From: a virus
Lineage: Duplodnaviria > Heunggongvirae > Uroviricota > Caudoviricetes
IMG/VR virus record: IMGVR_UViG_2541047705_000011
Direction: 5' to 3' (one strand)
Length of the DNA: 42,469 nucleotides
Position numbers and translations under genes: made by a program. A model generated the notes under the pieces. It was not told the origin of the DNA. It saw only the letters and a list, made by a program, of their open reading frames with translations, and made no database searches. This document shows positions 11,252 to 30,511 of the stretch, piece after piece (the first letter of the stretch is position 1; each line of letters starts with the position of its first letter).

Positions 11252-13726
11252 TTATTGCGGAGTGACATCCTGTGGTCGCCACCAGTATGTCTGGTTAAAC
11301 TCTTTCTTCGAACGTTGCTCCATTTTACGCAAATAGCCTGGTGAAAAATACTCCTGCATCTGGTTAAAGATCATGTGATCGAGAGCCGCCTTCAAGTACC
11401 AGAGATTCGCACCAGGCATCAAACCTTTCCCCAGCTTCACCAGATCACCACCAGTCTGCTCACTCTTCCCTTCCACAGCATTTAACGGTATGCCCTGAGC
11501 AATCTTCACTACGTCATCAACCAGACCAGCTACCGGGCCAAGCATCGACGCCAGCGCGCCGCTTCCGTACCTAGTGTGATCTGACAATAAAAAGTCACCG
11601 TAAAGGCCAAGACCACCACCTTTCAGTAGAGCACCAAGCCAGAATTTTGCGGCATCTTCTCCTGTCATCTCTCGAGAATTACGACCAGACGCAAGGTCGT
11701 TAAGTTGCTGCGACAAAGCGCCAAGAATGGTCGTACTGGCAATAAACGTCGCAATATATGCCGCACGCCCACCAGCAGACGGCATACCCATAGCGCGTGA
11801 CCAGTGACGCATAACAACCGAGATAGGGAACGATTTAAACAGGAAAACACTTCTCGTTAATTCACCTTTCCATGTTCCACGCTGAATACCAGAACCGGTT
11901 ATCAGTTGCTCACGTGCTCCCGGTGTAATAACAGCCATATCAACTTCTTCAGTTACGGCACCGAGCAGTTTACGCATTGCCTCAAATTTCACGCGTTCAG
12001 GCTCACCAAGATGTTTAACTGCTGAATCAGGGATACGCATAATGCTTTCCGGTGTCAGCATCGTATTATTACCGTTCCCCCAGTCCTCCTGTTTCGCCAG
12101 CTTCCATACGCTCCAGTCTGTGTCAGTAATCCCTTTGCTTTTCAGGATACGAAAATCAGAGTCATCGAGGCTACGAAGGTCTGGTGTCCGTGACACTACT
12201 TCTCCCAGGCTTCCCATCATGGTTACGCCATAGGCGCGCTTGTGCGCATCTGACCATGCTGTAAGCCCACTGGCACGCATTACCGCCGTTGCCGCCCAAC
12301 GAGACACTGACGGCCCCATATTATCCATCGCCCAGCGGTTAACGCTGCCAAGTAGAGATTCCATCGCCAGACCAGCGCGGCGCGCCCGCGCAAGTTCTGT
12401 ACGGTTCGTTGGGTCCATAGCTTCAAGCTGGTTGCGGAATAACTGGTTCATTGGAAGGTTGGTAACCTTCGCAGACAGATACATGGTTCCAAGATCAGAG
12501 AACGATGACAGCAACGCGGATCCGAGTCTGCTGGCAACCAGCCAGTTGCGGATATTGTCAGACCATCGCGCGATGTGCGGATTCGCTACAGGCTGTGTCT
12601 TTCCGGAAATAAAGTTGTACAGATTCTCTGTGTTGTTCGCCAGCCGCTCGACTTTACCGGTTTTACTCGGGTTAGCTGTTGCCGTTTCTGCCTTCACCTG
12701 ATCAAGAAGAGAGCGGAAAACATGATCGGGGTTTGGGCCATATGTTTCCACCAGTGCAATATCTTTACTGATACCTTCCAGGTGACCGACCATGATTTCC
12801 CATAGAGAGCGATCGCCATAAAGTTGCTGATATTGCAGATAGGAATCTGCATCTTTGAAATGTATCTGTCGTGATGCATTACCACGGTTAGCACGTGCGC
12901 CGGAAATTCGCATTCCGGTATCAGTAAGCTTATTCAGCCCACCAGTAGCGATCGTGTTATAAGCCTCTCCAAGAAATGAAGACAACTCGGCATCGTTCAT
13001 CAGTTGTCCATCGGCTCGGATATAATATTTGCGATCCAGCTTACCTATAACATCGCTAACCCACTTATCCTTTGATACTGCCCCAACCTTTTCCATAGAA
13101 TGATGTTGAGGGATCCCCCAGTTTTCGAGATAGCCAATGTCCCCACCAGCATCATTAAACCGGCGGCGCAGCAGCTCTGTAACTTCTCTCCACGCCTTAG
13201 CACCGTTTCTTGCTTTAGCATTGCCAGTATTTTGCCCCCGCATTTCATATACCAGGTCACGTACGCCCGCTTCATCTTCAAACAGACCAAAAAAGCGAGG
13301 ATCAACTGCTTCGAATGCCTCCTGCAATTGACTCAATGCATAATCACGAGTGGCTTTTGTTCTGGACTCAACAGAGAGGAAATTCGATTTACCGTCTGCA
13401 TTAAAAGCAATAGTACGGTTAAGAGCGCCAAGTTTCCCATCAGCCCCTTGATAGCTATTGATAAATTTATCCAATCTCTGACGCGCGGCTATAGTGAGAG
13501 CCACACGACGTTTCTTTAATGCCGCTTCTCGCTGTAATTCTTCAGATGCCAATTGTGCTGCTCGATATAGCCGCTCTGATTCGGAAAGTTGTCGCCACGA
13601 CATAGGGTCATCACGAGCAATGGAGCGCATATTTCGATAAATGCGGTCTTCAATGTTCTGTATTTCTCGCGCCGTTAACATGCGCTGCGCCGCCTGCTGA
13701 ACCGCTTGTATACATTCCTGTCTCAT
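11252..13726 (-). CDS. Large internal virion/ejection protein (824 aa)
   Basis: ORF track; last large gene of virion operon, in the position of podovirus injection proteins. Confidence 0.6.
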   Translation of the reverse strand: MRQECIQAVQQAAQRMLTAREIQNIEDRIYRNMRSIARDDPMSWRQLSESERLYRAAQLASEELQREAALKKRRVALTIAARQRLDKFINSYQGADGKLGALNRTIAFNADGKSNFLSVESRTKATRDYALSQLQEAFEAVDPRFFGLFEDEAGVRDLVYEMRGQNTGNAKARNGAKAWREVTELLRRRFNDAGGDIGYLENWGIPQHHSMEKVGAVSKDKWVSDVIGKLDRKYYIRADGQLMNDAELSSFLGEAYNTIATGGLNKLTDTGMRISGARANRGNASRQIHFKDADSYLQYQQLYGDRSLWEIMVGHLEGISKDIALVETYGPNPDHVFRSLLDQVKAETATANPSKTGKVERLANNTENLYNFISGKTQPVANPHIARWSDNIRNWLVASRLGSALLSSFSDLGTMYLSAKVTNLPMNQLFRNQLEAMDPTNRTELARARRAGLAMESLLGSVNRWAMDNMGPSVSRWAATAVMRASGLTAWSDAHKRAYGVTMMGSLGEVVSRTPDLRSLDDSDFRILKSKGITDTDWSVWKLAKQEDWGNGNNTMLTPESIMRIPDSAVKHLGEPERVKFEAMRKLLGAVTEEVDMAVITPGAREQLITGSGIQRGTWKGELTRSVFLFKSFPISVVMRHWSRAMGMPSAGGRAAYIATFIASTTILGALSQQLNDLASGRNSREMTGEDAAKFWLGALLKGGGLGLYGDFLLSDHTRYGSGALASMLGPVAGLVDDVVKIAQGIPLNAVEGKSEQTGGDLVKLGKGLMPGANLWYLKAALDHMIFNQMQEYFSPGYLRKMEQRSKKEFNQTYWWRPQDVTPQ

Positions 13727-13731
13727 TTAAT

Positions 13732-15534
13732 TTAACCTCTCAAGAAACACGCCACAGCGACATCAAACAGGCTGGAATCCTGTATTGCCTGCTCACTTTC
13801 CCTGTTCGCTTCATCCAGTGCTTCACGCGCACTGCGCGATTGTGGATTACCATCATCATCCAGCACGGTGATTATCATGTCAGGTGATTCAAGCAGCGAG
13901 TCTTCAGCTATGCGCAGATCAATATCTCCTGCCTTATCTGACATCATTTTTTGTTCTGCCTGTTGCAATATTTTATCAGGCTCAAAAGGAGCTACTTCGT
14001 CTGGCGTCCTGACCTCTGCTGTTTTATAGAATGAAACAGCCTGAGCATTAAGTTCACTTTCTGCCTGCTGTCTCCGAGCCAGTTCTGCTCGAGCTTCAAA
14101 AAGCTGACCGCCAGGCTCGTGCGGTGCCAACGCGTTACGGGAAAATTCCAGGCGTTCTTGTGCCTGCCGGATTCGTTGATCAATATCGCGAAGTCTGGCC
14201 TGTTTATCTGATCGAGCACGAGACAAAGCTTTACCGCTACCGGTTGGCTCTTCTGCAAGAATTTGTGCACGCTGTTCAGTGAGATTTTCAATAATTCGTT
14301 GGCTATTAGCGATTTCAGACTGGTAAACCTGTCTATCTCCACGCGGCAAAAGCTGCGCGGCCTGTTCTTCAAGCAACCGATTTTCTATAGCACGCGCCGT
14401 TACTCCATCATCTACAGATGACAGAGCCTCATTAACTGCCTGAGACAGCAGACTCTTGCGCCCAGGAATTTCACTGAAAGATGCAGACTCAACAATGCTG
14501 GCAACGTCTACAGGTCTCCCCTGGCTAACATCAGACATAGCTTTTCGCAGAGCCTGAATGTGAGAATTGCGCGAAAGCACGTTGATCGGCACGCCGGGCG
14601 CAATATCAATTTCAGCATGATGAGCGGCATTCGCCGCCAGTGCAGCATCGATATCAACTGGTGAAAAATTTGGTGCGTTTGTAGACTCGCCGCGAGAGTT
14701 AATAAATCTGCCGACACCACCAAACGCCACCCCAAGAACAGCATCAATAGCAATTGCCTGTCGATCCAACACATCATACTGGTTAGCCATTTCGCTATAG
14801 CCACCATCACGAAGTGTTTTTGCAGTAAGCCCACGCTGTGCCATACCGAACGCAATATTTGTACCTGCGGCATAGGCAATATCTGGCGTTGCACGTACTG
14901 CTGTTGCTGCGGCGCGTCGCACTGAACTCTCACCCGTCCGCGCAAGCTGAGCCGCCACACCTTCCGCCAGCGCACCACCAGCACGTAACCCGAGGCTCAT
15001 AGGGATCAGTGTTCCGGCACCAGCAGTAATGCCCTGCACTAATCCCGCTTCCTGCGCCGTCCTGAAATCAACACCCTGTGCTGTCAGCCGTTCAAACTCA
15101 GAAAAACCCTGTAGCGAAGTTACCGCCGCCGCACCTCCGACAGGACCACCGAGCGTTGTACCGACAACAGCCTGCCCGCCCATATCGAACAACCCATAAA
15201 GAACCTGCCCGGCGGTTCCGGTTGTCGCGGCATCAGGCGTCAGCCGCTTAACCTGCTGCTCTGCTAGTTTTCTCTGCTCGGCAATGTATGAAACTGAAGT
15301 ATCATTGAGCGAGGTGTTTTCGTTAATAAACTGAGCAATCGGGGATACGATTTTATCCATCCCTGCCCATAGCAACTGATCTGGCTTTGCCACCAGCCCG
15401 GAGTACAAACCAGACAATGCCGCTCCTACAGCATTGTCGAAAAAACCAACATCGCTGTTAAAGCCCGCTGGATTTGATGCTGCTTCGTCAAGTTGCTGAT
15501 TCTGGTTTACTGGATTAAGGCCAAAGTAACTCAT
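13732..15534 (-). CDS. Internal virion protein (600 aa)
   Basis: ORF track; Gly/Ala-rich N-terminal half and coiled-coil C-terminal half; ATGA overlap with upstream gene. Confidence 0.6.
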   Translation of the reverse strand: MSYFGLNPVNQNQQLDEAASNPAGFNSDVGFFDNAVGAALSGLYSGLVAKPDQLLWAGMDKIVSPIAQFINENTSLNDTSVSYIAEQRKLAEQQVKRLTPDAATTGTAGQVLYGLFDMGGQAVVGTTLGGPVGGAAAVTSLQGFSEFERLTAQGVDFRTAQEAGLVQGITAGAGTLIPMSLGLRAGGALAEGVAAQLARTGESSVRRAAATAVRATPDIAYAAGTNIAFGMAQRGLTAKTLRDGGYSEMANQYDVLDRQAIAIDAVLGVAFGGVGRFINSRGESTNAPNFSPVDIDAALAANAAHHAEIDIAPGVPINVLSRNSHIQALRKAMSDVSQGRPVDVASIVESASFSEIPGRKSLLSQAVNEALSSVDDGVTARAIENRLLEEQAAQLLPRGDRQVYQSEIANSQRIIENLTEQRAQILAEEPTGSGKALSRARSDKQARLRDIDQRIRQAQERLEFSRNALAPHEPGGQLFEARAELARRQQAESELNAQAVSFYKTAEVRTPDEVAPFEPDKILQQAEQKMMSDKAGDIDLRIAEDSLLESPDMIITVLDDDGNPQSRSAREALDEANRESEQAIQDSSLFDVAVACFLRG

Positions 15535-18044
15535 TGCGGAATATCTCCGGAGAATCTCTGACGCTTCTGTGTCAGATCAAGAACAACAGGAGAACCATCA
15601 TCTTTCAGCAGATAACCAGTACCAAGTTTCACCAGGTACTGACTATCGCCGTAACTTTGCAAACCATACTGACCAGGCGGTGTTTTTATCCCGGTGCCGA
15701 CCACTTGTTCATTCCAAGCCTGATTAACCTGCTTATCGAATTGCTCTGCAGACATTCCCCACGGCAAAAGGACATTCCCCATTCCGTTATAGTCATGCAC
15801 GCCACCTGTAGCTACGTTAACAGCCTGCTTCCAGATATCAGTGTCAATTTCGCCTGATATCACGCCTTTTTTCGCCATCACACCAGCGTAATAGTCCTTT
15901 GCGATCTCGTATGCCATTGATGCCCCCTGAGCATCACCAGCAAATGCATCCTTCACCATGTCAGAAAACTCAAGGCGAAGATCAGCATCTTTAGGCATCG
16001 GAATACCTTTCGCATCATCAGTACCTTTACGAGCCGCCGCGCCAGTAAGAATTGTCTGCGCAGCGGTTTCAGGAGACACGGAAACATCCGGATTAAACCA
16101 GTTTTTTTCTGCCAAAATACCACCAGGCTTGTCCATCAGTATCCCGGCAACGGCAGCAGATGGAGCGTTGGCACTGATCTGCTGTAGTGCTGACATATAC
16201 ACCTGCCCACCACCAGTGCTCTGCCTGATGGTATCGAGATATGCTGCCTGTTGGGAAACTGGAGCATCACGAAAGAAAACACCGATCTGATTGGCCTCGT
16301 CTTTGGAAAAGAACGTCAGTGGAGTGCCATATGACTTAGCAAGGTCACTGACCTGAGCAGCACGCAAGGCAACGCTCTGTCCAAAGTTATCCTTATTGCT
16401 CATGTCGATAGGCTTTGCCTGTCCGGCGGCAAGAGAGAACTGTACAGGATCAGCCTGTCGCTGCTTTATCACCTGGCTTGCAGCCGACACAACGTTGTCA
16501 TAAAGAGCGGCTCGTGCCGCATAACCCTCCCCTGTCTCACCAGTATCCGGGCGTAATTGCTCAACATATGCTGTAATGCTGCTTGTCGGCATGTTGCGGA
16601 AAGAGCCTATATACTGTCCGGCGATTTGCGTATTTCTGAACTCGGTATATCGCAGGTTTCCTTCTCTGACTCCATAAGCTGCAATAAAATCAGCCTCACC
16701 AGGTGGGTTAGGAAATTCAACGCCCCGCATATACGCAGCTGTCGCATCGCGAACCTTGCTGTCAATCATCGTTTTATATTCAGCCTGCTGCTGCCGACGC
16801 AGTTGATCCGCCTGTCGCATAAAACTTGCCTGCGCCTCAGGAGATGCCGCATCGAATGCTGCATTACCGGTATAGCGTTTGGTGTTGGTTGGAATTGTTG
16901 ATAAACCAAGTGCTGCACTGACACCAGCAGTTAACTGCTGATCACTGTATGGCTGGCTACCGTTCTCATGATGGATAATGGCTGCACAAAGCGCCTTCAG
17001 GGTATCAGGATTAGATGCATCGAGAGGCTCATCAGCAGAAACGCCAAGTTGTTCGCACACTGCTTTGATATACGACATAGTGTCATTTTTATCAGTAGGC
17101 GGTGCCCAGCGATTAATTATCTCGCTGACGGTATCAATACCCTGCCTCTGATACGACATCAGGTTCCGCCCTAATGCACGAATCCCGTGTTCAGGTGTTT
17201 CGAATTTAGCAAATCGACCATCATCACCGGTCTGGCCTACCCACGGATTAGTTTTGCTGTATTCGAGATTTCCTGGGTTATTGTTGCGTATGCCACGGGC
17301 ACGCTCGGAAGAGTCACTATCTGCTACAGCACGGCGAGCTCCAGCAGCAGTATCACTTAACTCGCCATTACTTTGGATGAATGCGGTCGCATTGTTTGCC
17401 GACCACTGGGACAATGCAGCATCAGCAACCTTCTCTTTAAACTCGATTTTCTTGGCCTGGATTTGCTCGTCACTCCAGCCATGTGCAATGCCGTAATCCT
17501 CAATTTGCTGGAAAGTTTGCTTATTAGCCAATACGTATGCGGCGTTGTCGCCATACAATGCTGCGGCATTTTTACCATTGTTCAGCAGCGTAGCCTGAAA
17601 CTGGCCTTCTTCGTAGGCATTTATTTGCCCTATCTCGTGCCGCCCTGCCTGCGTAGTGAACTGAATGCGCTGCTGCTGCGCCTGCTGCATGAAAGCATTA
17701 CGAGCCTGTTCATCCGGCAGCGACATAGCCAGTTGTTCGACCTGAGCATCAAACTGCTGCGTATACTCCTGACCTTTTCCAATAGCATTTTTCCCTTTCA
17801 GGTTAAGCAATCCTGTTTCAGGATTATTCAGCAGATCACTGCTTATCTGACTGAGGTTAAGAGATGCCTCCTGAGCCAGAGCGATATTGGCACGCTGTTT
17901 TGCCTGACCAAAAACATCAATTGCCTCTGTCCCTGCCCGAACAAAAGCATCACCAATACCTGGCTGAGAAAACGTCTGCAAGCCTGCTGACTGAACTCCA
18001 CGGCTCTGAACCTGACGGCCGGATACTGTTGGTACGACTGGCAT
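15531..18044 (-). CDS. Internal virion protein (838 aa)
   Basis: Start trimmed to ATG 18044 (MPVVPTVSG) with RBS GGAGG; one-base overlap with stop of upstream gene. Confidence 0.6.
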   Translation of the reverse strand: MPVVPTVSGRQVQSRGVQSAGLQTFSQPGIGDAFVRAGTEAIDVFGQAKQRANIALAQEASLNLSQISSDLLNNPETGLLNLKGKNAIGKGQEYTQQFDAQVEQLAMSLPDEQARNAFMQQAQQQRIQFTTQAGRHEIGQINAYEEGQFQATLLNNGKNAAALYGDNAAYVLANKQTFQQIEDYGIAHGWSDEQIQAKKIEFKEKVADAALSQWSANNATAFIQSNGELSDTAAGARRAVADSDSSERARGIRNNNPGNLEYSKTNPWVGQTGDDGRFAKFETPEHGIRALGRNLMSYQRQGIDTVSEIINRWAPPTDKNDTMSYIKAVCEQLGVSADEPLDASNPDTLKALCAAIIHHENGSQPYSDQQLTAGVSAALGLSTIPTNTKRYTGNAAFDAASPEAQASFMRQADQLRRQQQAEYKTMIDSKVRDATAAYMRGVEFPNPPGEADFIAAYGVREGNLRYTEFRNTQIAGQYIGSFRNMPTSSITAYVEQLRPDTGETGEGYAARAALYDNVVSAASQVIKQRQADPVQFSLAAGQAKPIDMSNKDNFGQSVALRAAQVSDLAKSYGTPLTFFSKDEANQIGVFFRDAPVSQQAAYLDTIRQSTGGGQVYMSALQQISANAPSAAVAGILMDKPGGILAEKNWFNPDVSVSPETAAQTILTGAAARKGTDDAKGIPMPKDADLRLEFSDMVKDAFAGDAQGASMAYEIAKDYYAGVMAKKGVISGEIDTDIWKQAVNVATGGVHDYNGMGNVLLPWGMSAEQFDKQVNQAWNEQVVGTGIKTPPGQYGLQSYGDSQYLVKLGTGYLLKDDGSPVVLDLTQKRQRFSGDIPQ

Positions 18045-18589
18045 TATAATCCTCCGGGTAATCTGGTTCCTGCTGCTGCCCCGATTGGCGCAGGGGTGCT
18101 TTGAGTAAACGGACTCCACGTCCCACCAAACATCTGGTACGCACCGTATGCCTTCAGAGGCGCAGTGAGCAATGTTGTTGCTGCTCCCACATTCCCCTGT
18201 TTACGGGCTGAACTGGCTTCTGCTTTATAGTTGGCAGCCTGAACCTGATAACCGTAAGCCTCGCGTTGCGCGTTATTCACCGTCGTCAGAGAATCAAGAG
18301 CGCCAAACTGGGCAGTGTCGCCAAATATATCCAGCGCGTTACCTGTAGATAAATCAGCGCCGGTAGCCCCCATTGTCGCCGCCTGTGTACCAAGCCGCTG
18401 TCGGGTCTCTCTGCGCCGTTGCTCAGCTTCAGCGTTACCTCTGTTTATTGCATCATTTGCCTGAGCTGTGGCTATATCTGTGTTCGCTTCTGCAACCTTC
18501 GAGACATACTTTCCCTGTTGGTACTGGGTGTATGCCTGAATGCCACTCATGGCGAGCATTGCGCCACCAGCAATAACCGGATCGCACAT
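18044..18589 (-). CDS. Internal virion protein (181 aa)
   Basis: ORF track; Ala/Gly/Gln-rich; coupled to flanking genes. Confidence 0.55.
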   Translation of the reverse strand: MCDPVIAGGAMLAMSGIQAYTQYQQGKYVSKVAEANTDIATAQANDAINRGNAEAEQRRRETRQRLGTQAATMGATGADLSTGNALDIFGDTAQFGALDSLTTVNNAQREAYGYQVQAANYKAEASSARKQGNVGAATTLLTAPLKAYGAYQMFGGTWSPFTQSTPAPIGAAAGTRLPGGL

Positions 18590-22452: not shown

Positions 22453-22463
22453 ATACACTCCTG

Positions 22464-22502: not shown

Positions 22503-22847
22503 TTACACGCCTAGTTCTTTACGCTTATCTGCGATCTTCTCGCGGAGCGTTTCGGCTTTAGCGTTATGGTGTGGCTTCTCGTTAAAGAGCAATTCGTACT
22601 CTTCACGGAGCTTATCCAGTTCACCATCATCTGACACATCGTTGATGATTTTGGTGCTGGTTGCTGCCATTGACACCTTTCCTGCAACTTTTGCTTTTGC
22701 CTGTCTGGCTGCATCGTTAACAGGTTCCAGTGCGCTACCAGGCTCACCTTCGTATTCGATTTCTGCCCCCTCCGGCCACAGAGTGTTATGGATATGAGAG
22801 AGGCGCAGAACGCGGTATCTTGGTTTCTCACCTGACATCGATATCAC
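22503..22847 (-). CDS. Hypothetical virion-module protein (114 aa)
   Basis: ORF track; within capsid-proximal cluster. Confidence 0.5.
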   Translation of the reverse strand: MISMSGEKPRYRVLRLSHIHNTLWPEGAEIEYEGEPGSALEPVNDAARQAKAKVAGKVSMAATSTKIINDVSDDGELDKLREEYELLFNEKPHHNAKAETLREKIADKRKELGV

Positions 22848-22848
22848 C

Positions 22849-23286
22849 TTAACCAGTTACTTTTGAGCGGATCGGATACGGCGTATTGGCATCAACATCA
22901 AGACTGATACCAGCAGTGAATTCGCCAGCCGTTAGTGGGCCAGTTGCGACGGAGTAGTTAACACGCAGATATCGCTGAACACCGGCAGGCACCTTTGCAG
23001 AAACAACTCGTTTACCTGCTGTCAGGGCGGTCTTTGCCAGTGCGCCACTATCATAAATAGTGGTCCATGAGCTGTTATTCTCACTCGTCTGCAACTGGAT
23101 GTTTACAGTTGCATCACCGCTTGCTGAGGCGGCTGCGTTAACCAGCACCCAAAACTCAAGCGGGTAACCCACGCCGATATCGCGATGGTTTCCATCAATT
23201 GGACCGAGATCGATTACGTCAGTAGAAGCCGCGGTATCAGTTACCGCCTGTGCTTCGGAGAACATCAACAGTTTGTCGGTGATCAT
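22849..23286 (-). CDS. Putative capsid decoration/structural protein (145 aa)
   Basis: ORF track; directly downstream of major capsid gene; RBS GGAGAAAG. Confidence 0.5.
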   Translation of the reverse strand: MITDKLLMFSEAQAVTDTAASTDVIDLGPIDGNHRDIGVGYPLEFWVLVNAAASASGDATVNIQLQTSENNSSWTTIYDSGALAKTALTAGKRVVSAKVPAGVQRYLRVNYSVATGPLTAGEFTAGISLDVDANTPYPIRSKVTG

Positions 23287-23337: not shown

Positions 23338-24330
23338 TTACACCACGCGGGCTTCTGTTTCCAGAAGCGCATCAGTTTCACGGATTGGTACACCACGGAA
23401 TGAAGTCCACCACTCGCCTTCTGTCTCTTTTACGCTGATCGCCAGAGATGTTTTCTCCAGAGATTGCAGATCAAGAGCCTGGCCTACAGTGCGGTTCATG
23501 TAGAACACCGGGCGACCCATGCCACGATTTGGAATGCGATGCAGTGCTTTAACCATCAACTTCGCAATATTTGCGGCAGAGGATGGTTCTGAAAGATTGC
23601 TGACATCGATGTTTGCAATGCGAACAACATAACGCCAGTCACGCAGAGCAAGTCCGTTATCCCATTTGTAATGGGTACGGTAGCCTTCGTACTTGCCGCC
23701 ATTAGCATCTTCCAGTGTCACCTGGCCTTTATCTTCCATCTGAATGCCAGCCTTCTGCCCTTTCGGGAAGATGCCATGCACGGTGTTTTCGCCCCACACC
23801 ACTAACCAGATTGAGGTGTTATCTGTACCCGTGCCACCAGCATCAATGATGTTCTGAGCATTACCTGCAGACAGGCTGGAATAGCGGGAGGACAGTCCCA
23901 TAAACTGCTGAGGGTTAACGCTGGAATCACCATAAAACAGCGTCTGCGCCATCTGCTGATTCATCGCTTCAATAAATGCGCGGTCTTCAGACAGGCGGAA
24001 TTCGGCGGTATTGCCGTTCAGATCAGCCAGTGACTTATCGACTTCAGCATAGGTTTCCAGCATGCCCACGTAATCGGTTACCTGCACTGTGGTTGATTTG
24101 CTTGGCTGTACGCCATAGTTCAGCAAACGCCAGGTAGCTGAAGGTAAACCAGAACGAATGGTGGTTCGGTGTCCGGTAGGAAGGTTCCCTTCGACAAAAG
24201 GCATATCCTGAAGGATCGGGTTAGTTTGACCGAGAAGCTCGATAATCTTATCGACTTTCCCGTTTTGATCGACGCGCTTACCCCAGTCAGCCAGCGTCAG
24301 CGCAGTTAAGCCTTTAACAGCCATTGTCAT
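23338..24330 (-). CDS. Major capsid protein
   Basis: 330 aa; follows the acidic scaffold gene; size and position typical. Confidence 0.7.
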   Translation of the reverse strand: MTMAVKGLTALTLADWGKRVDQNGKVDKIIELLGQTNPILQDMPFVEGNLPTGHRTTIRSGLPSATWRLLNYGVQPSKSTTVQVTDYVGMLETYAEVDKSLADLNGNTAEFRLSEDRAFIEAMNQQMAQTLFYGDSSVNPQQFMGLSSRYSSLSAGNAQNIIDAGGTGTDNTSIWLVVWGENTVHGIFPKGQKAGIQMEDKGQVTLEDANGGKYEGYRTHYKWDNGLALRDWRYVVRIANIDVSNLSEPSSAANIAKLMVKALHRIPNRGMGRPVFYMNRTVGQALDLQSLEKTSLAISVKETEGEWWTSFRGVPIRETDALLETEARVV

Positions 24331-24338: not shown

Positions 24339-25040
24339 TTATTTGCCATAGAGCACTTCGGCCGCACTACGCTGGCCTTCATTACCACCGGTGACCATGC
24401 CATCTTCAGACATCGCCTTTCCGATTTTCACGAACGTTTTGACCAGATCAGGGTGATTACCCAGCCCGGTGGTGTTCAGATATTCTTTGAGTTCAGGTGT
24501 CCCGAACTGGTCAAGCGCACGCTGTGCGGCGCTAAGGTTAGAAATCAACTTGTCGCCACCGATTTCTTTGTCGGCTTTTACATCCGCAGCCCACTGCTCG
24601 GTTGTTTTCTGCCAGGCTTCTGCCTGGCGCTGCTGAACACCTGCCAGAATCTTCGGATAAGCATCAACCAGCTTTTGCGCTTGCTCGTTGGTCAGGTTTA
24701 GTTCTCGCGCCACCGGCTCGAATTCCTTCAATGCTTCTGTATCCAGCTCTACGCCTTCGGCAGCCTGAAACTCGTACTTTTCAGGCGCACCCTCTGGTTT
24801 ATCGCCGTCCTTTTTTTCATCCTGCTTATCGTTTTCAGGCTTTTTGTCATCAGCAGGTTTATCGCCATCAGCAACAGGTTGTGGCTTATCACCTTCCTGT
24901 TGTGATGGATCACCAACTGGAGCAGGGTTATCACCTGCAGGCGCTGACGGTTCTGACGCAGCCGGAGCTGCTCCACCATCGACTGGTTGCTCATTGCAAA
25001 GACGGCGATACAGCAAACGCTCAAATAAATTCATGATCAC
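24339..25040 (-). CDS. Scaffolding protein
   Basis: Acidic, Pro/Asp/Lys-rich low-complexity N-terminal half; between portal and capsid. Confidence 0.6.
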   Translation of the reverse strand: MIMNLFERLLYRRLCNEQPVDGGAAPAASEPSAPAGDNPAPVGDPSQQEGDKPQPVADGDKPADDKKPENDKQDEKKDGDKPEGAPEKYEFQAAEGVELDTEALKEFEPVARELNLTNEQAQKLVDAYPKILAGVQQRQAEAWQKTTEQWAADVKADKEIGGDKLISNLSAAQRALDQFGTPELKEYLNTTGLGNHPDLVKTFVKIGKAMSEDGMVTGGNEGQRSAAEVLYGK

Positions 25041-25333
25041 TCCTGTTCACTGGCCTCTTTGGCCATCTTCAAATACTGTTCAGGGCAATGCGCCATAACG
25101 CGCTGAAACAGTTCCAGCGCCAGATTGCGTTGCCCCTCATTAAATGCCATTGCCATAGCATCCATCGGTGAGATAGCGGAAAACACACGGCCTTTCTCCA
25201 GCACCGACCAGACAACGCGACGCCCCTGTTCACTGCTCATGACAAAGCGAATGTCATCAATTTCACGCTGTGCCATGTCACGTTGCTTACGGGCGTTTTC
25301 TTCTTTCAGTTGATCGTCTTCATAATCTGTCAT
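25037..25333 (-). CDS. Small head-assembly-module protein (98 aa)
   Basis: ORF track; overlaps portal stop and scaffold start. Confidence 0.45.
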   Translation of the reverse strand: MTDYEDDQLKEENARKQRDMAQREIDDIRFVMSSEQGRRVVWSVLEKGRVFSAISPMDAMAMAFNEGQRNLALELFQRVMAHCPEQYLKMAKEASEQE

Positions 25334-27009
25334 TGTGATAGCCCACCCTGACCACTAACTGCATTCGCCATAGCTGACAACACACTCGGATCCGAAGTTT
25401 TAGCTTCGCTTAGCGTCTTGGCCCCCTGTGCCGCCGCCATCCCCATCGCCATCATTTGTTGCTGCTGTTGTTGCTGTGCCCGTTGCTGGCGAGCCTGCTC
25501 AACCTGTTCCTGCGGAACAATGACGGTTGGAGACACTCCGGACATATCAGCGAATGCATCGATCGCCTGATCAACGTTGAGTTTGTCGAGAGCTTCTGGT
25601 TTCGCTTGCGCAAGTTGACCAATGAAGTTAACCGTGGACGCCAGACTGGACAGGCCGATAGACTTCTGCGCCTGAGCCATGACGGAAATGTATTCGACCT
25701 TCAGGGGCATACCTTCCATCGCGTCAGGCGGTGGCGGCAGCATGTTTTTACGCACCATCATCGAGAAAGCGCGGTCAATGAGAGGATTAAGACATTCGTC
25801 GTTCAGACGCTCCAGAACCGGCCCCAACATCAGAAGTTTTTCTTCTTTCATTTCGATCACCGCTTCAACAGGCATCGAGCGGGTATTGATGTTCTGCAAC
25901 ATCATGAACAGATCGACAAAGTAGGCGCTGTTAATGATTTGACGGGTGTCCTGAATGTCTGCCACCAAATCTGCTGTACTGGGGTTAACCAGATAAGCAG
26001 GCCTGAAACCATCCTGACCAGTAATCTGATCGATATACGTGATGTCGCCAGGAAGAAGGGAGGCACGCTGATTCTTGAGGGAAGTCGGAGCAACCATCGG
26101 CGGATTGGTGGCTTTATCAATCAACTGCGACTTGCGCTTCTGGAGAAGCTGCAATGCCTTAACAGGTCCAAGCGCCAGCATACCCGGGCATGATGATCCA
26201 TAAACATCTTCGCCGTTAACTTCCCAGCGCGGAGCCATAATTGGAAACTCATCGAATCCGGACTCACGCAACAACTTGTCGTTATCGCCACCAACCTCGT
26301 AATAAACCGATTTGAATGGCTTGTTCTTGCTATCCAGCTTCGATGTATCGCGGTCAATGTTCGGGTAAACCGAATGCATCACTTCAATCCACTTCTCGTA
26401 GGTGCCGCTTTCCCACATGCTTTTTACGGATTCGCTGACGTTATTTAGTCCGAACTCCTGAACAAGCTGACGAACAGTCATAGAGAACTTGCGAAAACAG
26501 GTGTCCACACTGCCACGAGGTGAGTTAGCCAGGTAGTAACTTCCTATCGGGAATGGCATTGTACGAATGATGTCCTCGTCATCCTCCAGCACCGCCATTG
26601 CGCCAGTGCTGTATGTGCCGAGGCTTCCGTATAACTGCGGCAGCGACTGATAGAGATTCGACTTATTGAACATATCGTTCATGCGGTTCTGCACCGCCTC
26701 AAGCCACAACTTAACAGGGCCATAATCCATCATTTCAGGATCTGGCGTAGCCAGGCGAAACCACGGACGCGCGGGGCTTGTGATGCCTGACATCATGCCG
26801 CTGGCGAGAGTGCGCGCCGCCATAGTCCCGGTCGAATCAATAATGCGTGTATTGCGTCGATCGTTACGGTTGACCTCAGAAGTCAGAAAGCGGGAACCAC
26901 GCGGGTTGATGTAATCACTCAACTCGCGCCAGTGCGGCTCGAACGACTGACGCTCGCTTTCAAGTTGTGCGAACTGTTTGTTCAATCGCTCTTTAGTTGT
27001 TTCCGCCAT
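25330..27009 (-). CDS. Portal protein
   Basis: 559 aa; Gln-rich C-terminal tail (QQRAQQQQQQQMMAMGMAAAQ) like podovirus portals; RBS GGAG. Confidence 0.75.
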   Translation of the reverse strand: MAETTKERLNKQFAQLESERQSFEPHWRELSDYINPRGSRFLTSEVNRNDRRNTRIIDSTGTMAARTLASGMMSGITSPARPWFRLATPDPEMMDYGPVKLWLEAVQNRMNDMFNKSNLYQSLPQLYGSLGTYSTGAMAVLEDDEDIIRTMPFPIGSYYLANSPRGSVDTCFRKFSMTVRQLVQEFGLNNVSESVKSMWESGTYEKWIEVMHSVYPNIDRDTSKLDSKNKPFKSVYYEVGGDNDKLLRESGFDEFPIMAPRWEVNGEDVYGSSCPGMLALGPVKALQLLQKRKSQLIDKATNPPMVAPTSLKNQRASLLPGDITYIDQITGQDGFRPAYLVNPSTADLVADIQDTRQIINSAYFVDLFMMLQNINTRSMPVEAVIEMKEEKLLMLGPVLERLNDECLNPLIDRAFSMMVRKNMLPPPPDAMEGMPLKVEYISVMAQAQKSIGLSSLASTVNFIGQLAQAKPEALDKLNVDQAIDAFADMSGVSPTVIVPQEQVEQARQQRAQQQQQQQMMAMGMAAAQGAKTLSEAKTSDPSVLSAMANAVSGQGGLSQ

Positions 27010-27023: not shown

Positions 27024-27230
27024 TTACTGACCAAGCAGTGTTTTACCGCTGGTATTAGCGGTTGATGTGTCGCCCTGAGAACCGGTAAGCAGCGTAGAAC
27101 TACGACCAGCAGCAGCGCGACGGCGACGAGTTTCTTCGTCGCGGGCATCAACAACGGCGGCATCCTGCTCCTGTGGTGCTGCCTGAACTTCTGGTGTTGC
27201 AGGCACTGACGGTGAGCTACCCATGCACAT
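27024..27230 (-). CDS. Small low-complexity protein upstream of portal (68 aa)
   Basis: RBS GGAGTCATTGAT identical in context to the portal RBS. Confidence 0.4.
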   Translation of the reverse strand: MCMGSSPSVPATPEVQAAPQEQDAAVVDARDEETRRRRAAAGRSSTLLTGSQGDTSTANTSGKTLLGQ

Positions 27231-27657: not shown

Positions 27658-27734
27658 GTGGCATTAGCTCAGTCGGACAGAGCAACCGCCTTCTAAGCGG
27701 TTGGTCGCAGGTTCGAATCCTGCATGCCACGCCA
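27658..27734 (+). tRNA. Phage-encoded tRNA-Arg (anticodon UCU)
   Basis: 77-nt cloverleaf: acceptor GTGGCAT/ATGCCAC, D-stem GCTC/GAGC, anticodon stem ACCGC/GCGGT with loop CTTCTAA, T-arm GCAGG-TTCGAAT-CCTGC, discriminator G, encoded CCA. Confidence 0.9.
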
Positions 27735-27777
27735 GAATCACGCCTAAGGACCGTGATGCCAGAAGTTCCAGGGGCTT

Positions 27778-27819
27778 GGCGGTGATGGTTTCCCTTGAAG
27801 GACTATCACCGCCCTTTTT
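27778..27819 (+). terminator. Terminator after tRNA
   Basis: 9-bp stem GGCGGTGAT/ATCACCGCC with 18-nt loop, then CTTTTT. Confidence 0.55.
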
Positions 27820-27897
27820 ACAGCAGGACGCCATTGCGATGACTTCATGCTGTAAACCAGTACAGCCACGGAAGGCATAACTCATTGCTTCCAGTTC

Positions 27898-27921
27898 GCC
27901 CGGTTCGCCGGGCATTTTTTT
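27898..27921 (+). terminator. Strong hairpin plus T7 immediately upstream of moron RBS (terminator or attenuator)
   Basis: GCCCGG-TTCG-CCGGGC, A, then TTTTTTT; RBS AAGGTGAG begins at the next base. Confidence 0.6.
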
Positions 27922-27932
27922 AAGGTGAGATC

Positions 27933-28352
27933 ATGAAAACAATTGATATGTTGGCTAAGTATCTAAATGAATGGCCATTAAAATATTCTCGTATCGTTCA
28001 GGCTGAAGACTGCGTTTTTTATGGCGTTTTTGCTGGTAATGAAATGCATTACGAAGTAATTCAGAGTGAGGGACTGGCCGGGTTAACTCTTAGCGAAGAC
28101 CATGGTACTAGCGTTACGTTCCATGACTGGATAACAGCACAACGTTCTGAAATGGAAAAAGGCGATGTGTTTGATATTTCTCGCGCTGTTTACGCTAAAG
28201 CAAAAAGTGATAATGATTACATGAGCGAACACTTATACAACATGAAGTTACAATGCCTGCATGCGGCGCTTATTCAGAATGGGTACTTCGATAAAACAAG
28301 TGCCATCAATATTGCGGAAGCCATCAACACTGGATTTAATGCCATTAAGTAA
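27933..28352 (+). CDS. Hypothetical moron protein (139 aa), no recognisable family
   Basis: ORF track; only plus-strand gene inside the minus-strand late region; RBS AAGGTGAG; terminator downstream. Confidence 0.6.
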   Translation: MKTIDMLAKYLNEWPLKYSRIVQAEDCVFYGVFAGNEMHYEVIQSEGLAGLTLSEDHGTSVTFHDWITAQRSEMEKGDVFDISRAVYAKAKSDNDYMSEHLYNMKLQCLHAALIQNGYFDKTSAINIAEAINTGFNAIK

Positions 28353-28368: not shown

Positions 28369-28372
28369 AAAC

Positions 28373-28442: not shown

Positions 28443-29918
28443 TTAAGCATAGGGATCGTAATCTGTGATGGCCTTGCCTTGCTGGTTCTGCTGCCCGGGA
28501 ATTCGCAGACGCTTCGACACAGGGAACGCAAACGTCAGCAGTAGCGCATCGCCTTTACCCGGCGAACGCCCAAGCCGCTCCTTGATATCCTCCTTCGGTT
28601 CGATAACGATTTTACCGTCCACGCGAACTTTGTACTCTGCCGCCGACAGGTCGTCTGCAGTTTCCTGGTCATCCAGCATGCCGCCCAGCCTCAGCCATGT
28701 CTTACATGAGTTGAACATCTCCCCACGCTTGTTAAGCATCTGCGGGTCAGTGGACGCACCGCCGAACGGAACAAGTTGCCATGTGCGCCCCCAGCCGTCA
28801 CCGATTGACTTCAGACCAGTTCCGTAACCGAAGTCGATGAACACTGCGTCAGCCTGGTACTGGTCTTCAAAGTCAGCGATACGCTTCGCCATAATCAGAT
28901 CGTCAGTGGTCTTGTTGCCAGTCCATAGCACCTTACTGTGCAGCCCCTGCCGCAGGTATATCACAGCGTCATCAACGCCGGAGTACGCCGGGTCAACGCC
29001 GATTATCACCGGAGCATGTGCAACCTGCGCAGCGGTTACCACCCGTTTCATTGCCTCGTCAGTAAGACCGGTAGGGATAAACTGCAATTCAGATGCATCA
29101 GGGAATATGCCGCGCACACGGATTTTAACGAAGTCGCTGTCTTCCCCGTAGTCATCAACCCATTTCTGCAACTGCTGTTTGTTAGTGCCTTCCACCGTCC
29201 GGCTGTCAATCTGCGCACACTTCCAGCGGTGTTTGTACTTGCGGAAACATTCACGGAAACGCCCGGTGTTACGCGTCGGGTTCCCGAACGCCACCCAGAT
29301 GATTTCGGTGTCTTCGTCCGTAAGCGCACCCTCAGCAACTTCCCACACCAGATCCGCAATGTTCGACGCTTCATCGAATACCACGATGATGCGTTTGCGC
29401 TCGTTGTGTAGTCCGGCGAATGCCTCAGTGTTGTGCTCAGACCAGGGGATTGCGTCAGCTCGCCACCGCTTGTCGTGCCCAGGATCATTGCTGTACATCG
29501 CAGTAGCGGTACAGGTAAACCAGTCTTTCGTGATAGCAAGGTTCGACCACTTGATAATTTCCGGCCAGGTCTTCGTTCGTAGCTGGTTGTCGGTGTTGGC
29601 GGTCACCACGACCTTACAATCCTCGCAAGTGGACATGCCCCAGTTGATCAGCATTGAGATGAATGCGGATTTACCAATACCGTGACCAGAAGCGCGTGCC
29701 AGCATAAGCGGCTGATAGCGCGTCTCTGGATTCTGCAGGTGATCACGTATCTCTCGGAACGCATCAGCCTGCCACTGACGTGGGCCGGTAGCATGTGCCA
29801 GTTCAGTACCCTCTTCCCCCCACGGGAACGCATAGAGGGCATAGCCAAGCGGATCGTGAGTGAACCCTGCAATATCCTCGATTAACTGCTCTTCAGGAGA
29901 TAACGCTGTATCTGTCAC
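28443..29918 (-). CDS. Terminase large subunit
   Basis: 491 aa; Walker A ASGHGIGKS near N-terminus; nuclease-type C-terminal half; follows small subunit. Confidence 0.85.
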   Translation of the reverse strand: MTDTALSPEEQLIEDIAGFTHDPLGYALYAFPWGEEGTELAHATGPRQWQADAFREIRDHLQNPETRYQPLMLARASGHGIGKSAFISMLINWGMSTCEDCKVVVTANTDNQLRTKTWPEIIKWSNLAITKDWFTCTATAMYSNDPGHDKRWRADAIPWSEHNTEAFAGLHNERKRIIVVFDEASNIADLVWEVAEGALTDEDTEIIWVAFGNPTRNTGRFRECFRKYKHRWKCAQIDSRTVEGTNKQQLQKWVDDYGEDSDFVKIRVRGIFPDASELQFIPTGLTDEAMKRVVTAAQVAHAPVIIGVDPAYSGVDDAVIYLRQGLHSKVLWTGNKTTDDLIMAKRIADFEDQYQADAVFIDFGYGTGLKSIGDGWGRTWQLVPFGGASTDPQMLNKRGEMFNSCKTWLRLGGMLDDQETADDLSAAEYKVRVDGKIVIEPKEDIKERLGRSPGKGDALLLTFAFPVSKRLRIPGQQNQQGKAITDYDPYA

Positions 29919-30511
29919 TGATTGCCATCCTGACGTTCTTTCAGTCTCTTCCTGGCTGCCGCTATGCGATCAGCAATTGTCACATTCACATTAACATCCA
30001 GGCGTTCTTTGAATGCGTTGACGTCGACGTGCTTACCAATCAGTTCGAGGTTCTTCACCTTGTCAGGCCATTTAATTTTTTTGAGGATTGTCTCTATCGA
30101 ATCCTCGTTCATGTTCATGATGGTCGATGACAGATCAAAGCCGCTAAGCGTAGTGCGCCAGATTTTCGGCCACTCTCGGATTGGCTTAAGGCTACCATCG
30201 TCGTTGAGGATGTCGATCACGTCCATCTGGTCGATCTCCACCAGGCGCATGAGAACGTAATCAGCACTGACGCGCATTCGTTTGTTGCGCTCCTCCATCA
30301 ACTCGGCAATCCGTTTCTGAATGCGTTCATCGCGCATCATGACACTGGCTTTAACTGCCGCTGTATTTGGGGAGAATCCTGCATTAATCGCTGCCTGAGT
30401 CTGGTTTTCAGGCGTTTTGATGTATGACTGGCAATAAGCCTCCTGCATTGCTGTTAGTGGCTTAAATTGCGTTGATTTGCGTTTATAGGTTTTAGGTTCA
30501 GCAGGCATCAT
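29915..30511 (-). CDS. Terminase small subunit
   Basis: Start trimmed to ATG 30511 (MMPAEPKTYKRK); track ORF starts at TTG 30589 with no RBS; overlaps large-subunit start. Confidence 0.65.
   Translation of the reverse strand: MMPAEPKTYKRKSTQFKPLTAMQEAYCQSYIKTPENQTQAAINAGFSPNTAAVKASVMMRDERIQKRIAELMEERNKRMRVSADYVLMRLVEIDQMDVIDILNDDGSLKPIREWPKIWRTTLSGFDLSSTIMNMNEDSIETILKKIKWPDKVKNLELIGKHVDVNAFKERLDVNVNVTIADRIAAARKRLKERQDGNQ

Follow-up and report, generated by a model that had tools for sequence, protein, structure and literature searches.

Gene content and lineage of a Uetakevirus prophage with T7-like tail genes beside yfgI

Prophage boundary, lysis genes and accessory region

The window, as we call the whole stretch of 42,469 nucleotides that was analysed, opens in bacterial DNA. 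A glycine-zipper lipoprotein gene (1-516) and yfgI/DUF5384 (532-1071), both on the plus strand and both identified with Pfam, the latter also by the E. coli "yfgI" annotation under its RefSeq matches, make up a host flank (1-1071) that lies outside the phage. Matches to phage genomes start at 1163, and exactly there, beside host yfgI, sits the att core ATTGAGTGGGAATGATT (1163-1179, minus strand; one exact match, 0 expected), which marks the left prophage junction. The same 17-mer is the attP of phiV10, epsilon15, and ZX5, the last of which is described as temperate and short-tailed, with the 3' end of guaA as its insertion site (PMC9782041). Since guaA and the right-hand att copy lie beyond the window, the site of integration is deduced from a single junction. 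At its other end the window stops at the start codon of a tyrosine integrase of 416 aa (41219-42469, minus strand; PF13356, PF22022, PF00589), with amino acid identities of 98-99% to the integrases of phiV10 and ZX5 and 87% to that of epsilon15.

A lysis cassette (1290-3087, minus strand) contains, by Pfam, a DUF2514 Rz-like spanin (1290-1772), a GH19 endolysin (1769-2398), a holin (2388-2696), and a holin-like membrane protein (2683-3087), which are 81-100% identical at the amino acid level to their ZX5, phiV10, and epsilon15 counterparts. The accessory/antirepressor region (6691-9583), annotated with PHROGs, holds a gp19-like gene (6691-6966, plus), a 242-aa protein of unknown function (6989-7717, minus), a Bro-N antirepressor-like gene (8068-8805, plus; Pfam Bro-N) whose product is 80% identical to the ORF4 antirepressor of ZX5, and a 210-aa protein of unknown function (8951-9583, plus). 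A small lipoprotein-like gene read from the sequence (MRKVFLIFGFMLLVGC..., 9875-10264, minus; phrog_3716) has a ZX5 counterpart at 99% amino acid identity. It is followed by an IS1 of 768 bp (10321-11088, plus; Pfam DDE_Tnp_IS1) flanked by a 9-bp target duplication, TATTCTTCC. This element has inserted at the very 3' terminus of a small hypothetical ORF, 57 bp upstream of the non-conserved lipoprotein gene, and is not present in ZX5 and phiV10.

Virion genes and tailspike

The virion genes run along the minus strand from the terminase. TerS (29915-30511) and TerL (28443-29918) were assigned by phrog_2, Pfam Terminase_2, and 95-100% amino acid identity to epsilon15 and phiV10; for TerS the ATG at 30511 is the likelier start, because a TTG start would give a longer ORF that encloses a terminator and two operators. 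Between TerL and the portal are an antisense insert (27658-28352, plus strand) and a small gp3-like gene (27024-27230). The insert consists of a tRNA-Arg(UCU) found by ARAGORN (27658-27734) and a 139-aa ORF of unknown function (27933-28352; phrog_4846) with no counterpart in ZX5 or phiV10.

The portal (25330-27009; PF12236, E 1.6e-187) is followed within 24339-25333 by a gp5-like 98-aa Bbp19-family protein (PF25181) and a gp6-like 233-aa protein. The latter occupies the place where the earlier note had put a scaffold, a role that its position suggests; searches of Pfam and PDB with it gave no match, and its PHROG, phrog_458, is labelled "protease". The major capsid protein of 330 aa (23338-24330) belongs to PF20911 "GP7", the epsilon15 capsid protein family (E 8e-149). 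Three head genes separate it from the tail adaptor, which had been described as following the capsid gene directly: a Bbp16-like cement protein (22849-23286), a gp9-like small head protein (22503-22847), and a Gp10-like capsid staple (22129-22458), the small head proteins being covered in Pfam by PF21628 and PF21190.

The adaptor (21524-22129, 201 aa), a tubular tail A-like protein, was modelled with AF2 (pLDDT 87), and its Foldseek matches include the Carin-1 connector (E 2.5e-17), T7 gp11 (E 1e-6, TM about 0.6), and the KP32 tubular protein A. The tubular tail B-like nozzle (19053-21524, 823 aa) matches PDB 8CK1_A, the "Tail Nozzle" of phage Carin-1 (E 6e-218), and is 88% identical to epsilon15 gp12, which is listed as a homologue of the T7 tubular tail B protein (PMC4819975). 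Two small proteins rather than the single one of the earlier note come next after the nozzle: a gp13-like assembly protein or internal virion protein A (18589-19053, 154 aa; phrog_308, E 9e-63), which reaches only E 0.088 with PF11090, and a gp14-like internal virion protein (18044-18589, 181 aa; PF24072 T7_gp14, 31.2 bits against a cut-off of 27). The three large internal virion proteins then complete the gene order of the earlier note, which is real. The gp15-like protein (15531-18044, 837 aa; PHROG) carries a lytic transglycosylase domain, its residues 274-423 matching endolysin/Gp29 in PDB; its start is the ATG at 18044, where PHROG matches begin at residue 26 of a longer ORF and where the sequence overlaps the upstream stop as TAATG. 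The gp16-like protein (13732-15534, 600 aa; phrog_1145) is 97% identical to phiV10 and 32% to epsilon15 gp16, and a structure search returned no solved relative for it. The gp17-like ejection protein (11252-13726, 824 aa; phrog_684 "virion structural protein") is 99% identical to phiV10 p20 and 28% to epsilon15 gp17, which is listed as a homologue of T7 IVP-D (PMC4819975).

The tailspike (3394-6513, minus strand, 1039 aa; PF12218, PF12217, PF12195, PF12219, PF13884) lies about 4.7 kb past the last internal-protein gene, with about six accessory genes and the IS1 in between, and not within 11252-30511, where the earlier note had counted it. It comprises a virion anchor (about residues 1-170), an endosialidase (205-876), and a self-cleaving chaperone domain (877-937), and is 100% identical to ORF7 of the published K1 phage ZX5. 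The proposed T7-type N-terminus is supported by its predicted fold, which matches the Carin-1 fibre and the N-terminus of T7 gp17, and not by PF03906, where it scores 15.9 bits, below the Pfam cut-off of 25.2. The N-terminal 16% of the spike is 68-72% identical to those of phiV10 and epsilon15. Against the CUS-3 endosialidase the spike has 96% amino acid identity across 82% of its length. Receptor destruction in this lineage falls to the endosialidase part of the spike, which cuts the K1 polysialic-acid capsule. Because this part is nearly identical to its counterpart in CUS-3, a P22-like prophage, it was most likely gained by module exchange.

From homology with studied relatives, we expect a capsid of GP7-type coat protein with gp10 staple and Bbp16-like cement, a T7-type portal, and a short tail built of a 12-fold gp11-like adaptor and a 6-fold gp12-like nozzle, with trimeric spikes held by their T7-gp17-like N-terminal part. 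The gp14- to gp17-like proteins, one with a transglycosylase, would form an internal core that leaves the particle on infection and spans the cell envelope.

Immunity and early genes

The immunity switch (36169-37272) has the CI/Cro-type arrangement claimed for it, with an HTH repressor (36554-37138, plus; Pfam HTH_3, phrog_35) and a divergent Cro-like gene (36169-36399, minus). The repressors of phiV10 and ZX5 are 100% identical to this one, and Pfam finds no S24 or LexA-like cleavage domain in it. Predicted operators from a motif scan flank the repressor gene (36436-36498 and 37196-37272). Their motif, TTACC-N5-GGTAA, is identical to that of the repressor sites in the RefSeq annotation of epsilon15 and occurs at 13 sites against 0.82 expected, a count reached in 0 of 100 shuffles. 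Sites are found at 6618, 7738, 7831, and 8877 in the accessory/antirepressor region and also in front of the late operons.

The replication pair (PF17948, PF13730, PF06992) consists of a DnaT-like/HTH_36 initiator (34987-35802, minus) and a lambda-P-family protein (34205-35005, minus) with 31% amino acid identity to lambda P. The reported O/P pair therefore holds for P, and the "O" gene matches DnaT plus HTH_36, not the lambda O family. The end of the early-right operon (30586-34087, minus) contains small accessory genes (DUF4752, DUF551, Ead/Ea22, and DUF1064 in Pfam) and a gp49-like regulator (30816-31157, minus); some match CUS-3 genes at 92-97% amino acid identity and lambda ea22 at 61%. 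The early-left operon (37432-41024, plus; Pfam) encodes a YqaJ exonuclease (37743-38642), RecT (38652-39674), and AlpA-like (39724-39972), PerC-like (40082-40381), and MT-A70 methylase (40374-41024) proteins. Exonuclease and RecT, whose presence along with the integrase had been noted correctly, are 91-92% identical to their epsilon15 counterparts and have none in phiV10 and ZX5.

The repressor keeps the prophage in lysogeny by binding these palindromes, whose places are the divergent switch, an OL-like site, and the stretches immediately before the operons of the late genes, the tailspike, and the antirepressor. Escape would probably proceed through the Bro-N antirepressor and not through repressor self-cleavage; in ZX5 the lytic-lysogenic switch is controlled by its repressor and antirepressor (PMC9782041).

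Lineage and relation to T7, P22 and lambda

The window holds a prophage of the genus Uetakevirus, the epsilon15/phiV10-like temperate podoviruses, at the usual site of the genus, where the 3' end of guaA adjoins yfgI, a reading to which we give a probability of about 0.95. The hallmark families PF20911 (GP7), PF21628 (Gp10-like), PF21190 (Bbp16), and PF12236 (portal) are all present. Positions 11252-30511 have 97.5-98.4% DNA identity over 98-100% coverage to HEMP4, PAS61, ZX5, phiv142-3, and phiV10, and about 77% identity to epsilon15. All genes from terminase to integrase are collinear with phiV10 and epsilon15, and gene by gene the order matches ZX5 and phiV10 at 95-100% and epsilon15 at 28-95% amino acid identity. 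Genome-wide similarity is 81% to ZX5, 75% to phiV10, and only about 40% to epsilon15, so that phiV10 and ZX5 carry the genus assignment. Over 68% of its length the early region has about 98% identity to phiV10, and when the early and late halves were compared in full both were nearest to phiV10 and ZX5.

These comparisons bear directly on the view that a lytic T7-like virion module was joined in a recent event to the backbone of a lambdoid prophage, a reading implied by the earlier note. T7-type tail and ejection proteins at the family or fold level, a lambda P homologue, and early-region parts that hundreds of lambdoid and Stx phages share at 90-99% nucleotide identity would all fit such a chimera. 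However, both halves are collinear with epsilon15, phiV10, and ZX5, G+C is even (0.47-0.52) over the supposed junction, the terminase differs from that of T7 in type and position, and the nozzle-to-capsid block is found in 509 of 5,426 complete E. coli genomes (about 9%). Genus-wide collinearity refutes a recent fusion, which we regard as very improbable; a T7-like tail with a lambda-like early region is the standard, known layout of Uetakevirus. The P22-like alternative, a Lederbergvirus K1 prophage like CUS-3, had rightly been set aside in the earlier note and has a negligible chance of being correct. The endosialidase part (99.5% nucleotide identity to CUS-3 siaK1), three small early genes shared with CUS-3, and the succession of ejection genes, antirepressor region, tailspike, att, and int recall P22, but tblastn, blastp, and phmmer found no homologue of the P22/CUS-3 portal, coat, gp4, gp10, gp26, gp7, gp20, or gp16. 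The spike N-terminus is moreover of the epsilon15 type, and the genome is 8.5% similar to CUS-3 and 0.8% similar to each of P22 and lambda; with a portal of a different family, this refutes P22-like identity. The structural proteins thus belong to neither a P22-like nor a siphovirus lineage, and their own lineage is nonetheless a standard one.

That the same Uetakevirus prophage is a defective, decaying remnant, in which the IS1 or other lesions block particle production, seems unlikely, yet deserves more weight. The IS1, between the internal-protein operon and the lipoprotein gene, has a fresh duplication, is absent from sequenced phages, and might impair the prophage; related prophages elsewhere carry IS2/IS3 elements in the same region. 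Against this, the IS1 lies outside any known essential gene, and all genes with phiV10/ZX5 counterparts are full length at 95-100% amino acid identity.

For the Uetakevirus prophage, the T7 likeness of the tail and ejection genes, already published by Hardies et al. 2016, is real but remote. The portal shares PF12236 with T7 gp8, while the P22 portal is PF16510; the gp14-like protein shares PF24072 with T7 gp14 and the gp13-like protein phrog_308 with T7 gp13; and by predicted fold the adaptor resembles T7 gp11 and the spike anchor the gp17 N-terminus. These genes are therefore T7-type and not P22-type, as had been claimed. No BLAST-level similarity to any T7 protein was found, so any shared origin with T7 is ancient. 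No test here linked the nozzle or any of the three large internal proteins to T7 proteins, and that link rests on the literature. The terminase genes precede the portal, an arrangement shared with P22 and lambda, whereas those of T7 are at the far end, and their type is also not T7-like. Regulation is only loosely lambdoid, and the earlier "lambdoid regulation" overstated: Pfam finds no N, Q, cII, or lambda-O family in the window, the repressor lacks a LexA-like cleavage domain, and operators lie at late promoters. What is shared with lambda is the layout and a P homologue, next to an initiator that is DnaT-like and not lambda O.

Affiliation with Uetakevirus and the integration junction

Across 98-100% of its length, the structural block (11252-30511) shares 97.5-98.4% identity with the Escherichia phages HEMP4, PAS61, ZX5, phiv142-3, and phiV10, and its identity to Salmonella phage epsilon15 is approximately 77%. 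The early region matches phiV10 at approximately 98% identity across 68% of its length. Gene-by-gene tblastn searches found the same terminase-to-integrase order in ZX5, phiV10, and epsilon15, with 95-100% amino acid identity to both coliphages, and collinearity with all three runs through the terminase, virion, tailspike, lysis, att/int, recombination, immunity, and replication genes. In a VIRIDIC-like calculation, genome-wide similarity was 81% to ZX5, 75% to phiV10, 40% to epsilon15, 8.5% to CUS-3, and 0.8% to both lambda and P22. Under the current ICTV rule, a phage belongs to a genus when its nucleotide similarity to one of the members is 70% or more across the genome, and the values for ZX5 and phiV10 lie above this threshold. 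Database records assign ZX5, phiV10, and epsilon15 alike to the genus Uetakevirus. The GP7-type capsid protein (PF20911, E 8e-149) and the gp10 staple (PF21628, E 1e-51) are both present.

The window is a common and already named prophage type. Counting the nozzle-to-capsid block as present when coverage was at least 80%, we found it in 509 of 5,426 complete E. coli genomes, including the K1 strains CE10 and APEC O1. The pairing of virion genes in T7 order with a lambda-like early region, which the earlier note had read as a mosaic fusion, is the standard published architecture of Uetakevirus, shared collinearly by ZX5, phiV10, and epsilon15. Published work on epsilon15 and ZX5 shows particles with a short tail, six tailspikes, and an internal core, and such a particle is predicted here by homology.

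Host DNA, with yfgI (DUF5384) and a gene for a glycine-zipper lipoprotein, makes up the first 1,162 bases, and similarity to phage genomes sets in exactly at base 1163. In the K-12 gene order, yfgI is the neighbor of guaA. The 17-mer ATTGAGTGGGAATGATT lies at this junction beside yfgI, with 1 exact copy in the window and 0 expected by chance. This sequence is the attP core of phiV10, epsilon15, and ZX5, whose integration site is the 3' end of guaA (PMC9782041). Since the right edge of the window is the start codon of the tyrosine integrase, the window contains one junction and nearly the whole prophage. Both edges coincide with the first base of a gene, a host gene on the left and the integrase on the right, so the window looks to have been trimmed at gene boundaries, leaving the right att copy and guaA outside. 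G+C content is fairly even across the window (0.43-0.52), and there is a single tRNA gene.

Virion genes and their relationship to T7

The virion genes run along the minus strand from 30511 to 11252, beginning with the small and then the large terminase, followed by a small gp3-like gene, the portal (PF12236), and a Bbp19-like protein. A 233-aa protein next occupies the scaffold position and precedes the major capsid protein, which belongs to PF20911, the epsilon15 GP7 family. A Bbp16-like cement protein, a gp9-like protein, and a Gp10-like staple lie between the capsid gene and a 201-aa protein, after which come an 823-aa protein, 2 small proteins of 154 and 181 aa, and 3 large proteins that end the series. 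For the first of these large proteins, the ATG at 18044 is the most likely start and yields a length of 837 aa. The longest TerS ORF (29915-30589) starts with a TTG at 30589, and its first 26 codons hold a terminator-like hairpin and 2 predicted operators; the ATG at 30511, where the earlier note had ended the block, is the likelier start. The gene list in that note holds in outline, though it missed 1 small protein and 3 head proteins. Its scaffold is the 233-aa protein, a call made by position for a protein with no Pfam hit and the PHROG label "protease". Its placement of a tail fiber directly after the internal proteins does not hold, as this gene (3394-6513, minus strand) lies outside the block, with an IS1 element and approximately 6 accessory genes in between.

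Pairwise comparison of all window proteins with the virion proteins of T7 and P22 by tblastn, blastp, and phmmer gave nothing significant, so the likeness to T7 was judged by family membership and predicted fold. The portal and T7 gp8 both belong to PF12236 (624 bits and 379 bits, respectively), while the P22 portal belongs to PF16510. The 181-aa protein scores above the cut-off of PF24072, the family of T7 gp14, and the 154-aa protein matches the same PHROG as T7 gp13 (phrog_308). An AlphaFold model of the 201-aa protein (mean pLDDT 87) matched the connector of phage Carin-1 (E 2.5e-17, TM 0.85), T7 gp11 (E 1e-6, TM ~0.6), and the KP32 tubular protein A; P22 gp4 was not among the fold matches of this model. 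The fold search took the place of a profile comparison, since a 37-sequence adaptor profile was too shallow (Neff 2.1) and hhalign found nothing with it against T7 gp11 and P22 gp4.

The 823-aa protein matches the solved "Tail Nozzle" of Carin-1 (E 6e-218) and is 88% identical to epsilon15 gp12, which has been described as a homolog of the T7 tubular tail protein B, just as epsilon15 gp17 has been described as a homolog of the T7 internal virion protein D (Hardies et al., PMC4819975). The link between the nozzle and T7 comes only from that study. In Pfam searches at E-values up to 10, no T7 families were found in the adaptor, nozzle, gp16-like, or gp17-like proteins; the gp11 and gp12 families PF17212 and PF25675 were thus missing from the adaptor and nozzle, whose PHROGs also differ from those of T7. 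Sequence searches of the PDB found no solved relatives of the gp6-, gp14-, gp16-, and gp17-like proteins. The fiber N-terminus scored 15.9 bits against PF03906 (Phage_T7_tail), where the cut-off is 25.2. A model of fiber residues 1-204 (mean pLDDT 65) is confident only for a beta-sandwich at residues 10-85; this anchor matched the Carin-1 fiber (E 7e-12) and the T7 gp17 N-terminus (E 1e-4 to 3e-3, probability 1.0, with low TM-scores).

With the portal, gp13, and gp14 families in common with T7, a predicted adaptor fold that matches, and a fiber-anchor fold that matches at low TM-scores, the T7-type tail proposed earlier is borne out: tail and ejection proteins are of the T7 type, though very distant in evolution, a conclusion that is already published. 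As in the T7 module (gp8, gp11-gp17), the order is portal, putative scaffold, capsid, adaptor, nozzle, gp13, gp14, and large internal proteins. The differences are that the capsid belongs to another Pfam family and is joined by extra head proteins, that there are 3 large internal proteins versus 2 in T7, that terminase genes of the P22/Sf6 type (Terminase_2) lie upstream of the portal, and that the fiber gene is displaced. The lifestyle is temperate, and no phage RNA polymerase gene was seen, in contrast to T7; Pfam scans of all early- and accessory-region ORFs found no single-subunit RNA polymerase domain, and the only ORFs longer than 420 aa encode virion proteins, TerL, and the tailspike. 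Because P22 gp4, gp10, and gp7 have also been related to this same protein set (Hardies et al., PMC4819975), the "T7 order" is a general podovirus order. The closest solved tail is that of Carin-1, a marine phage of Cobetia marina (PDB 8CK1), which is matched in the connector (E 3e-26) and fiber anchor (E 7e-37) as well as the nozzle; its own spike body is a different one, the Dpo31 depolymerase, and the likeness is read from tail proteins.

Early region and predicted operators

Pfam and PHROG assignments in the early region include an HTH repressor with a divergent Cro-like gene, a DnaT-like initiator with a lambda-P-family protein, a YqaJ exonuclease with RecT, AlpA-like and PerC-like regulators, an MT-A70 methylase, and the integrase. 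The layout resembles that of lambda in its divergent repressor/Cro pair, in the OL-like operators before a leftward operon of recombination genes that runs up to the integrase, and in a rightward operon whose replication genes precede small Ea/Nin-like genes. The P protein (PF06992, E 2e-57) is 31% identical to lambda P at the amino acid level, and there is an Ea22-like protein with 61% identity to lambda ea22. Segments of the early region are common to hundreds of Stx and other lambdoid phages at 90-99% DNA identity, and the lambdoid gene pool does feed this region.

The "lambdoid regulation" of the earlier note holds only in part, for the layout and the P homolog. Pfam found none of the N, Q, cII, or lambda-O families in the early-region ORFs, where very divergent analogs are possible. 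The initiator belongs to DnaT/HTH_36, outside the lambda O family, and in the 194-aa repressor Pfam found only HTH domains and no S24 (LexA-like) cleavage domain.

The palindrome TTACC-N5-GGTAA, which is annotated as a repressor site in the RefSeq record of epsilon15, occurs at 13 sites with at most 1 mismatch, compared with 0.82 expected, and none of 100 shuffles reached 13. Predicted operators lie at 36436 and 36484 in the divergent switch (36436-36498) and at 37196 and 37258 just past the repressor gene (37196-37272). Others precede TerS (30511 and 30529, directly after a terminator-like hairpin), gp3 and the portal (27321), the tailspike (6618), and the DUF1064 gene (34091 and 34153), and 3 are found in the antirepressor region (7738, 7831, and 8877). 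This arrangement of predicted sites suggests that the repressor may act directly on the late operons, which would then be shut by the repressor itself and not by way of an antitermination cascade. Induction would proceed through the Bro-N antirepressor, which is 80% identical to its ZX5 homolog; overexpression experiments in ZX5 point to the same role for that homolog (PMC9782041).

The exonuclease and RecT (37743-39674) are 91-92% identical at the amino acid level to those of epsilon15; tblastn matched neither gene in phiV10 or ZX5, both of which carry another RecE/RecT allele. These sequences suggest that alleles were swapped between members of the genus.

Tailspike, accessory genes, and known relatives

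The tailspike is a 1039-aa protein with an N-terminal part, 4 endosialidase domains, and an S74 chaperone domain. Its N-terminal ~166 residues are 68-72% identical to the spikes of phiV10 and epsilon15, and from approximately residue 233 on its DNA is 99.5% identical to siaK1 of CUS-3. The whole protein is 100% identical to ZX5 ORF7, already described as a T7-like fiber N-terminus joined to an endosialidase and a chaperone (PMC9782041). It is this spike body, common to CUS-3, that gives rise to the thought of a P22-like K1 prophage. Membership in the P22-like group (Lederbergvirus) was rejected, as tblastn, blastp, and phmmer found no counterparts of the P22 portal, coat, gp4/gp10/gp26, or gp7/gp20/gp16, and the P22 portal and coat fall in other Pfam families than those of the window; the earlier dismissal of such a prophage was correct. 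Three small ORFs at 31147-32673 are 92-97% identical at the amino acid level to genes at the right end of CUS-3, so that two unrelated K1 prophage types share accessory genes besides the spike body. The tailspike is followed by a 306-bp gap (3088-3393) without a capsule- or O-antigen-modifying gene, as in ZX5.

A complete IS1 element of 768 bp (10321-11088, InsB ORF 10570-11073) is flanked by a 9-bp target duplication, TATTCTTCC. It closely follows the gp17-like gene, with a lipoprotein-like gene 57 bp downstream of it, and sits at the last 2 codons of a small hypothetical ORF, which rules out disruption of a virion gene. This IS1 is missing from ZX5 and phiV10, and IS2 or IS3 is found in this region of related prophages in other E. 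coli genomes. The lipoprotein-like ORF (9875-10264), with the signal MRKVFLIFGFMLLVGC, is 99% identical to a ZX5 hypothetical protein and missing from phiV10 and epsilon15; its product may serve in superinfection exclusion or in conversion.

Two further ORFs, 6989-7717 (242 aa, phrog_6762) and 8951-9583 (210 aa, phrog_1349), have no counterpart in ZX5, phiV10, or epsilon15. The C-terminus of the 242-aa protein weakly matches endonuclease VII and Lar-like zinc-finger PHROGs, and PADLOC reported no defense-system hits among 10 accessory ORFs, with none for these 2. Between TerL and the portal, on the strand opposite the virion genes, 27658-28352 holds a tRNA-Arg(UCU) and a 139-aa ORF (phrog_4846), an ORF that ZX5 and phiV10 lack. 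Synechococcus phage S-RIM2 has a tRNA-Arg with approximately 91% identity to this one, and the tRNA-Arg gene by itself accounts for the 65 "Synechococcus phage" matches in the structural block.

The only lineage-specific features are the epsilon15-type exonuclease/RecT, a few swapped accessory genes, the antisense tRNA-Arg/ORF insert, and the IS1 with its 9-bp duplication. Because the closest phage genome is approximately 81% similar, one could go beyond membership in Uetakevirus and see a previously unsequenced species-level recombinant within the genus, uniting the CUS-3-shared K1 spike, epsilon15-type recombination genes, new accessory genes, and an IS1, which we regard as a tentative and rather doubtful reading. 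If still active, the prophage would be a second, independent type of K1-capsule-specific temperate phage living in K1 strains, and a natural case of spike-body exchange between podovirus lineages with its junction after the T7-type anchor. Most of this picture is already evident in ZX5. As a discovery the Uetakevirus assignment carries little weight: the genomes of epsilon15 (2007) and phiV10 (2009) already showed the architecture, Hardies et al. (2016) related its tail and internal proteins to those of T7, and ZX5, characterized in 2022, has the same endosialidase spike. Its value lies in annotation, since it cleanly maps the genes of a prophage type carried by about 1 in 11 complete E. coli genomes, with predicted repressor operators before late operons that set the group apart from true lambdoid phages.

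The P22-like K1 prophage CUS-3 (Enterobacteria phage, CP000711) shares the endosialidase catalytic and chaperone regions (99.5% nucleotide identity), a few early accessory genes, and an occurrence in K1 strains, but differs in all virion genes save the spike body and in its integration site, immunity, N/Q, and replication genes; it carries neuO at the place after the spike. Salmonella phage epsilon15 (NC_004775; Kropinski et al. 2007; cryo-EM by Jiang et al. 2006 and Chang et al. 2010) has the same architecture, gene order, operator palindrome, att core, and integrase type, along with the 91-92% identical exonuclease and RecT. Its capsid and large internal proteins, however, are only 28-59% identical at the amino acid level, tblastn found no lambda-P homolog in it, and its spike is an endorhamnosidase followed by serotype-conversion genes. 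The type member of Uetakevirus phiV10 (NC_007804; Perry et al. 2009) agrees in the TerS-to-integrase order and has virion, replication, and immunity proteins 97-100% identical at the amino acid level. Unlike the window it has a fused RecE-RecT gene, and its spike, directed against the O157 antigen, has the O-acetyltransferase gene oac after it, while no modifying gene comes after the endosialidase here. The closest relative is Escherichia phage vB_EcoP_ZX5 (MW722083, Uetakevirus; Li et al. 2022, PMC9782041), with virion proteins 95-100% identical at the amino acid level, an identical endosialidase tailspike and repressor, and the same integrase, att core, and lysis cassette. The window departs from ZX5 in its epsilon15-type exonuclease and RecT alleles, in another initiator allele (46% amino acid identity across 31% of its length), in the accessory genes at 6989-7717, 8951-9583, and 27933-28352, and in having an IS1.
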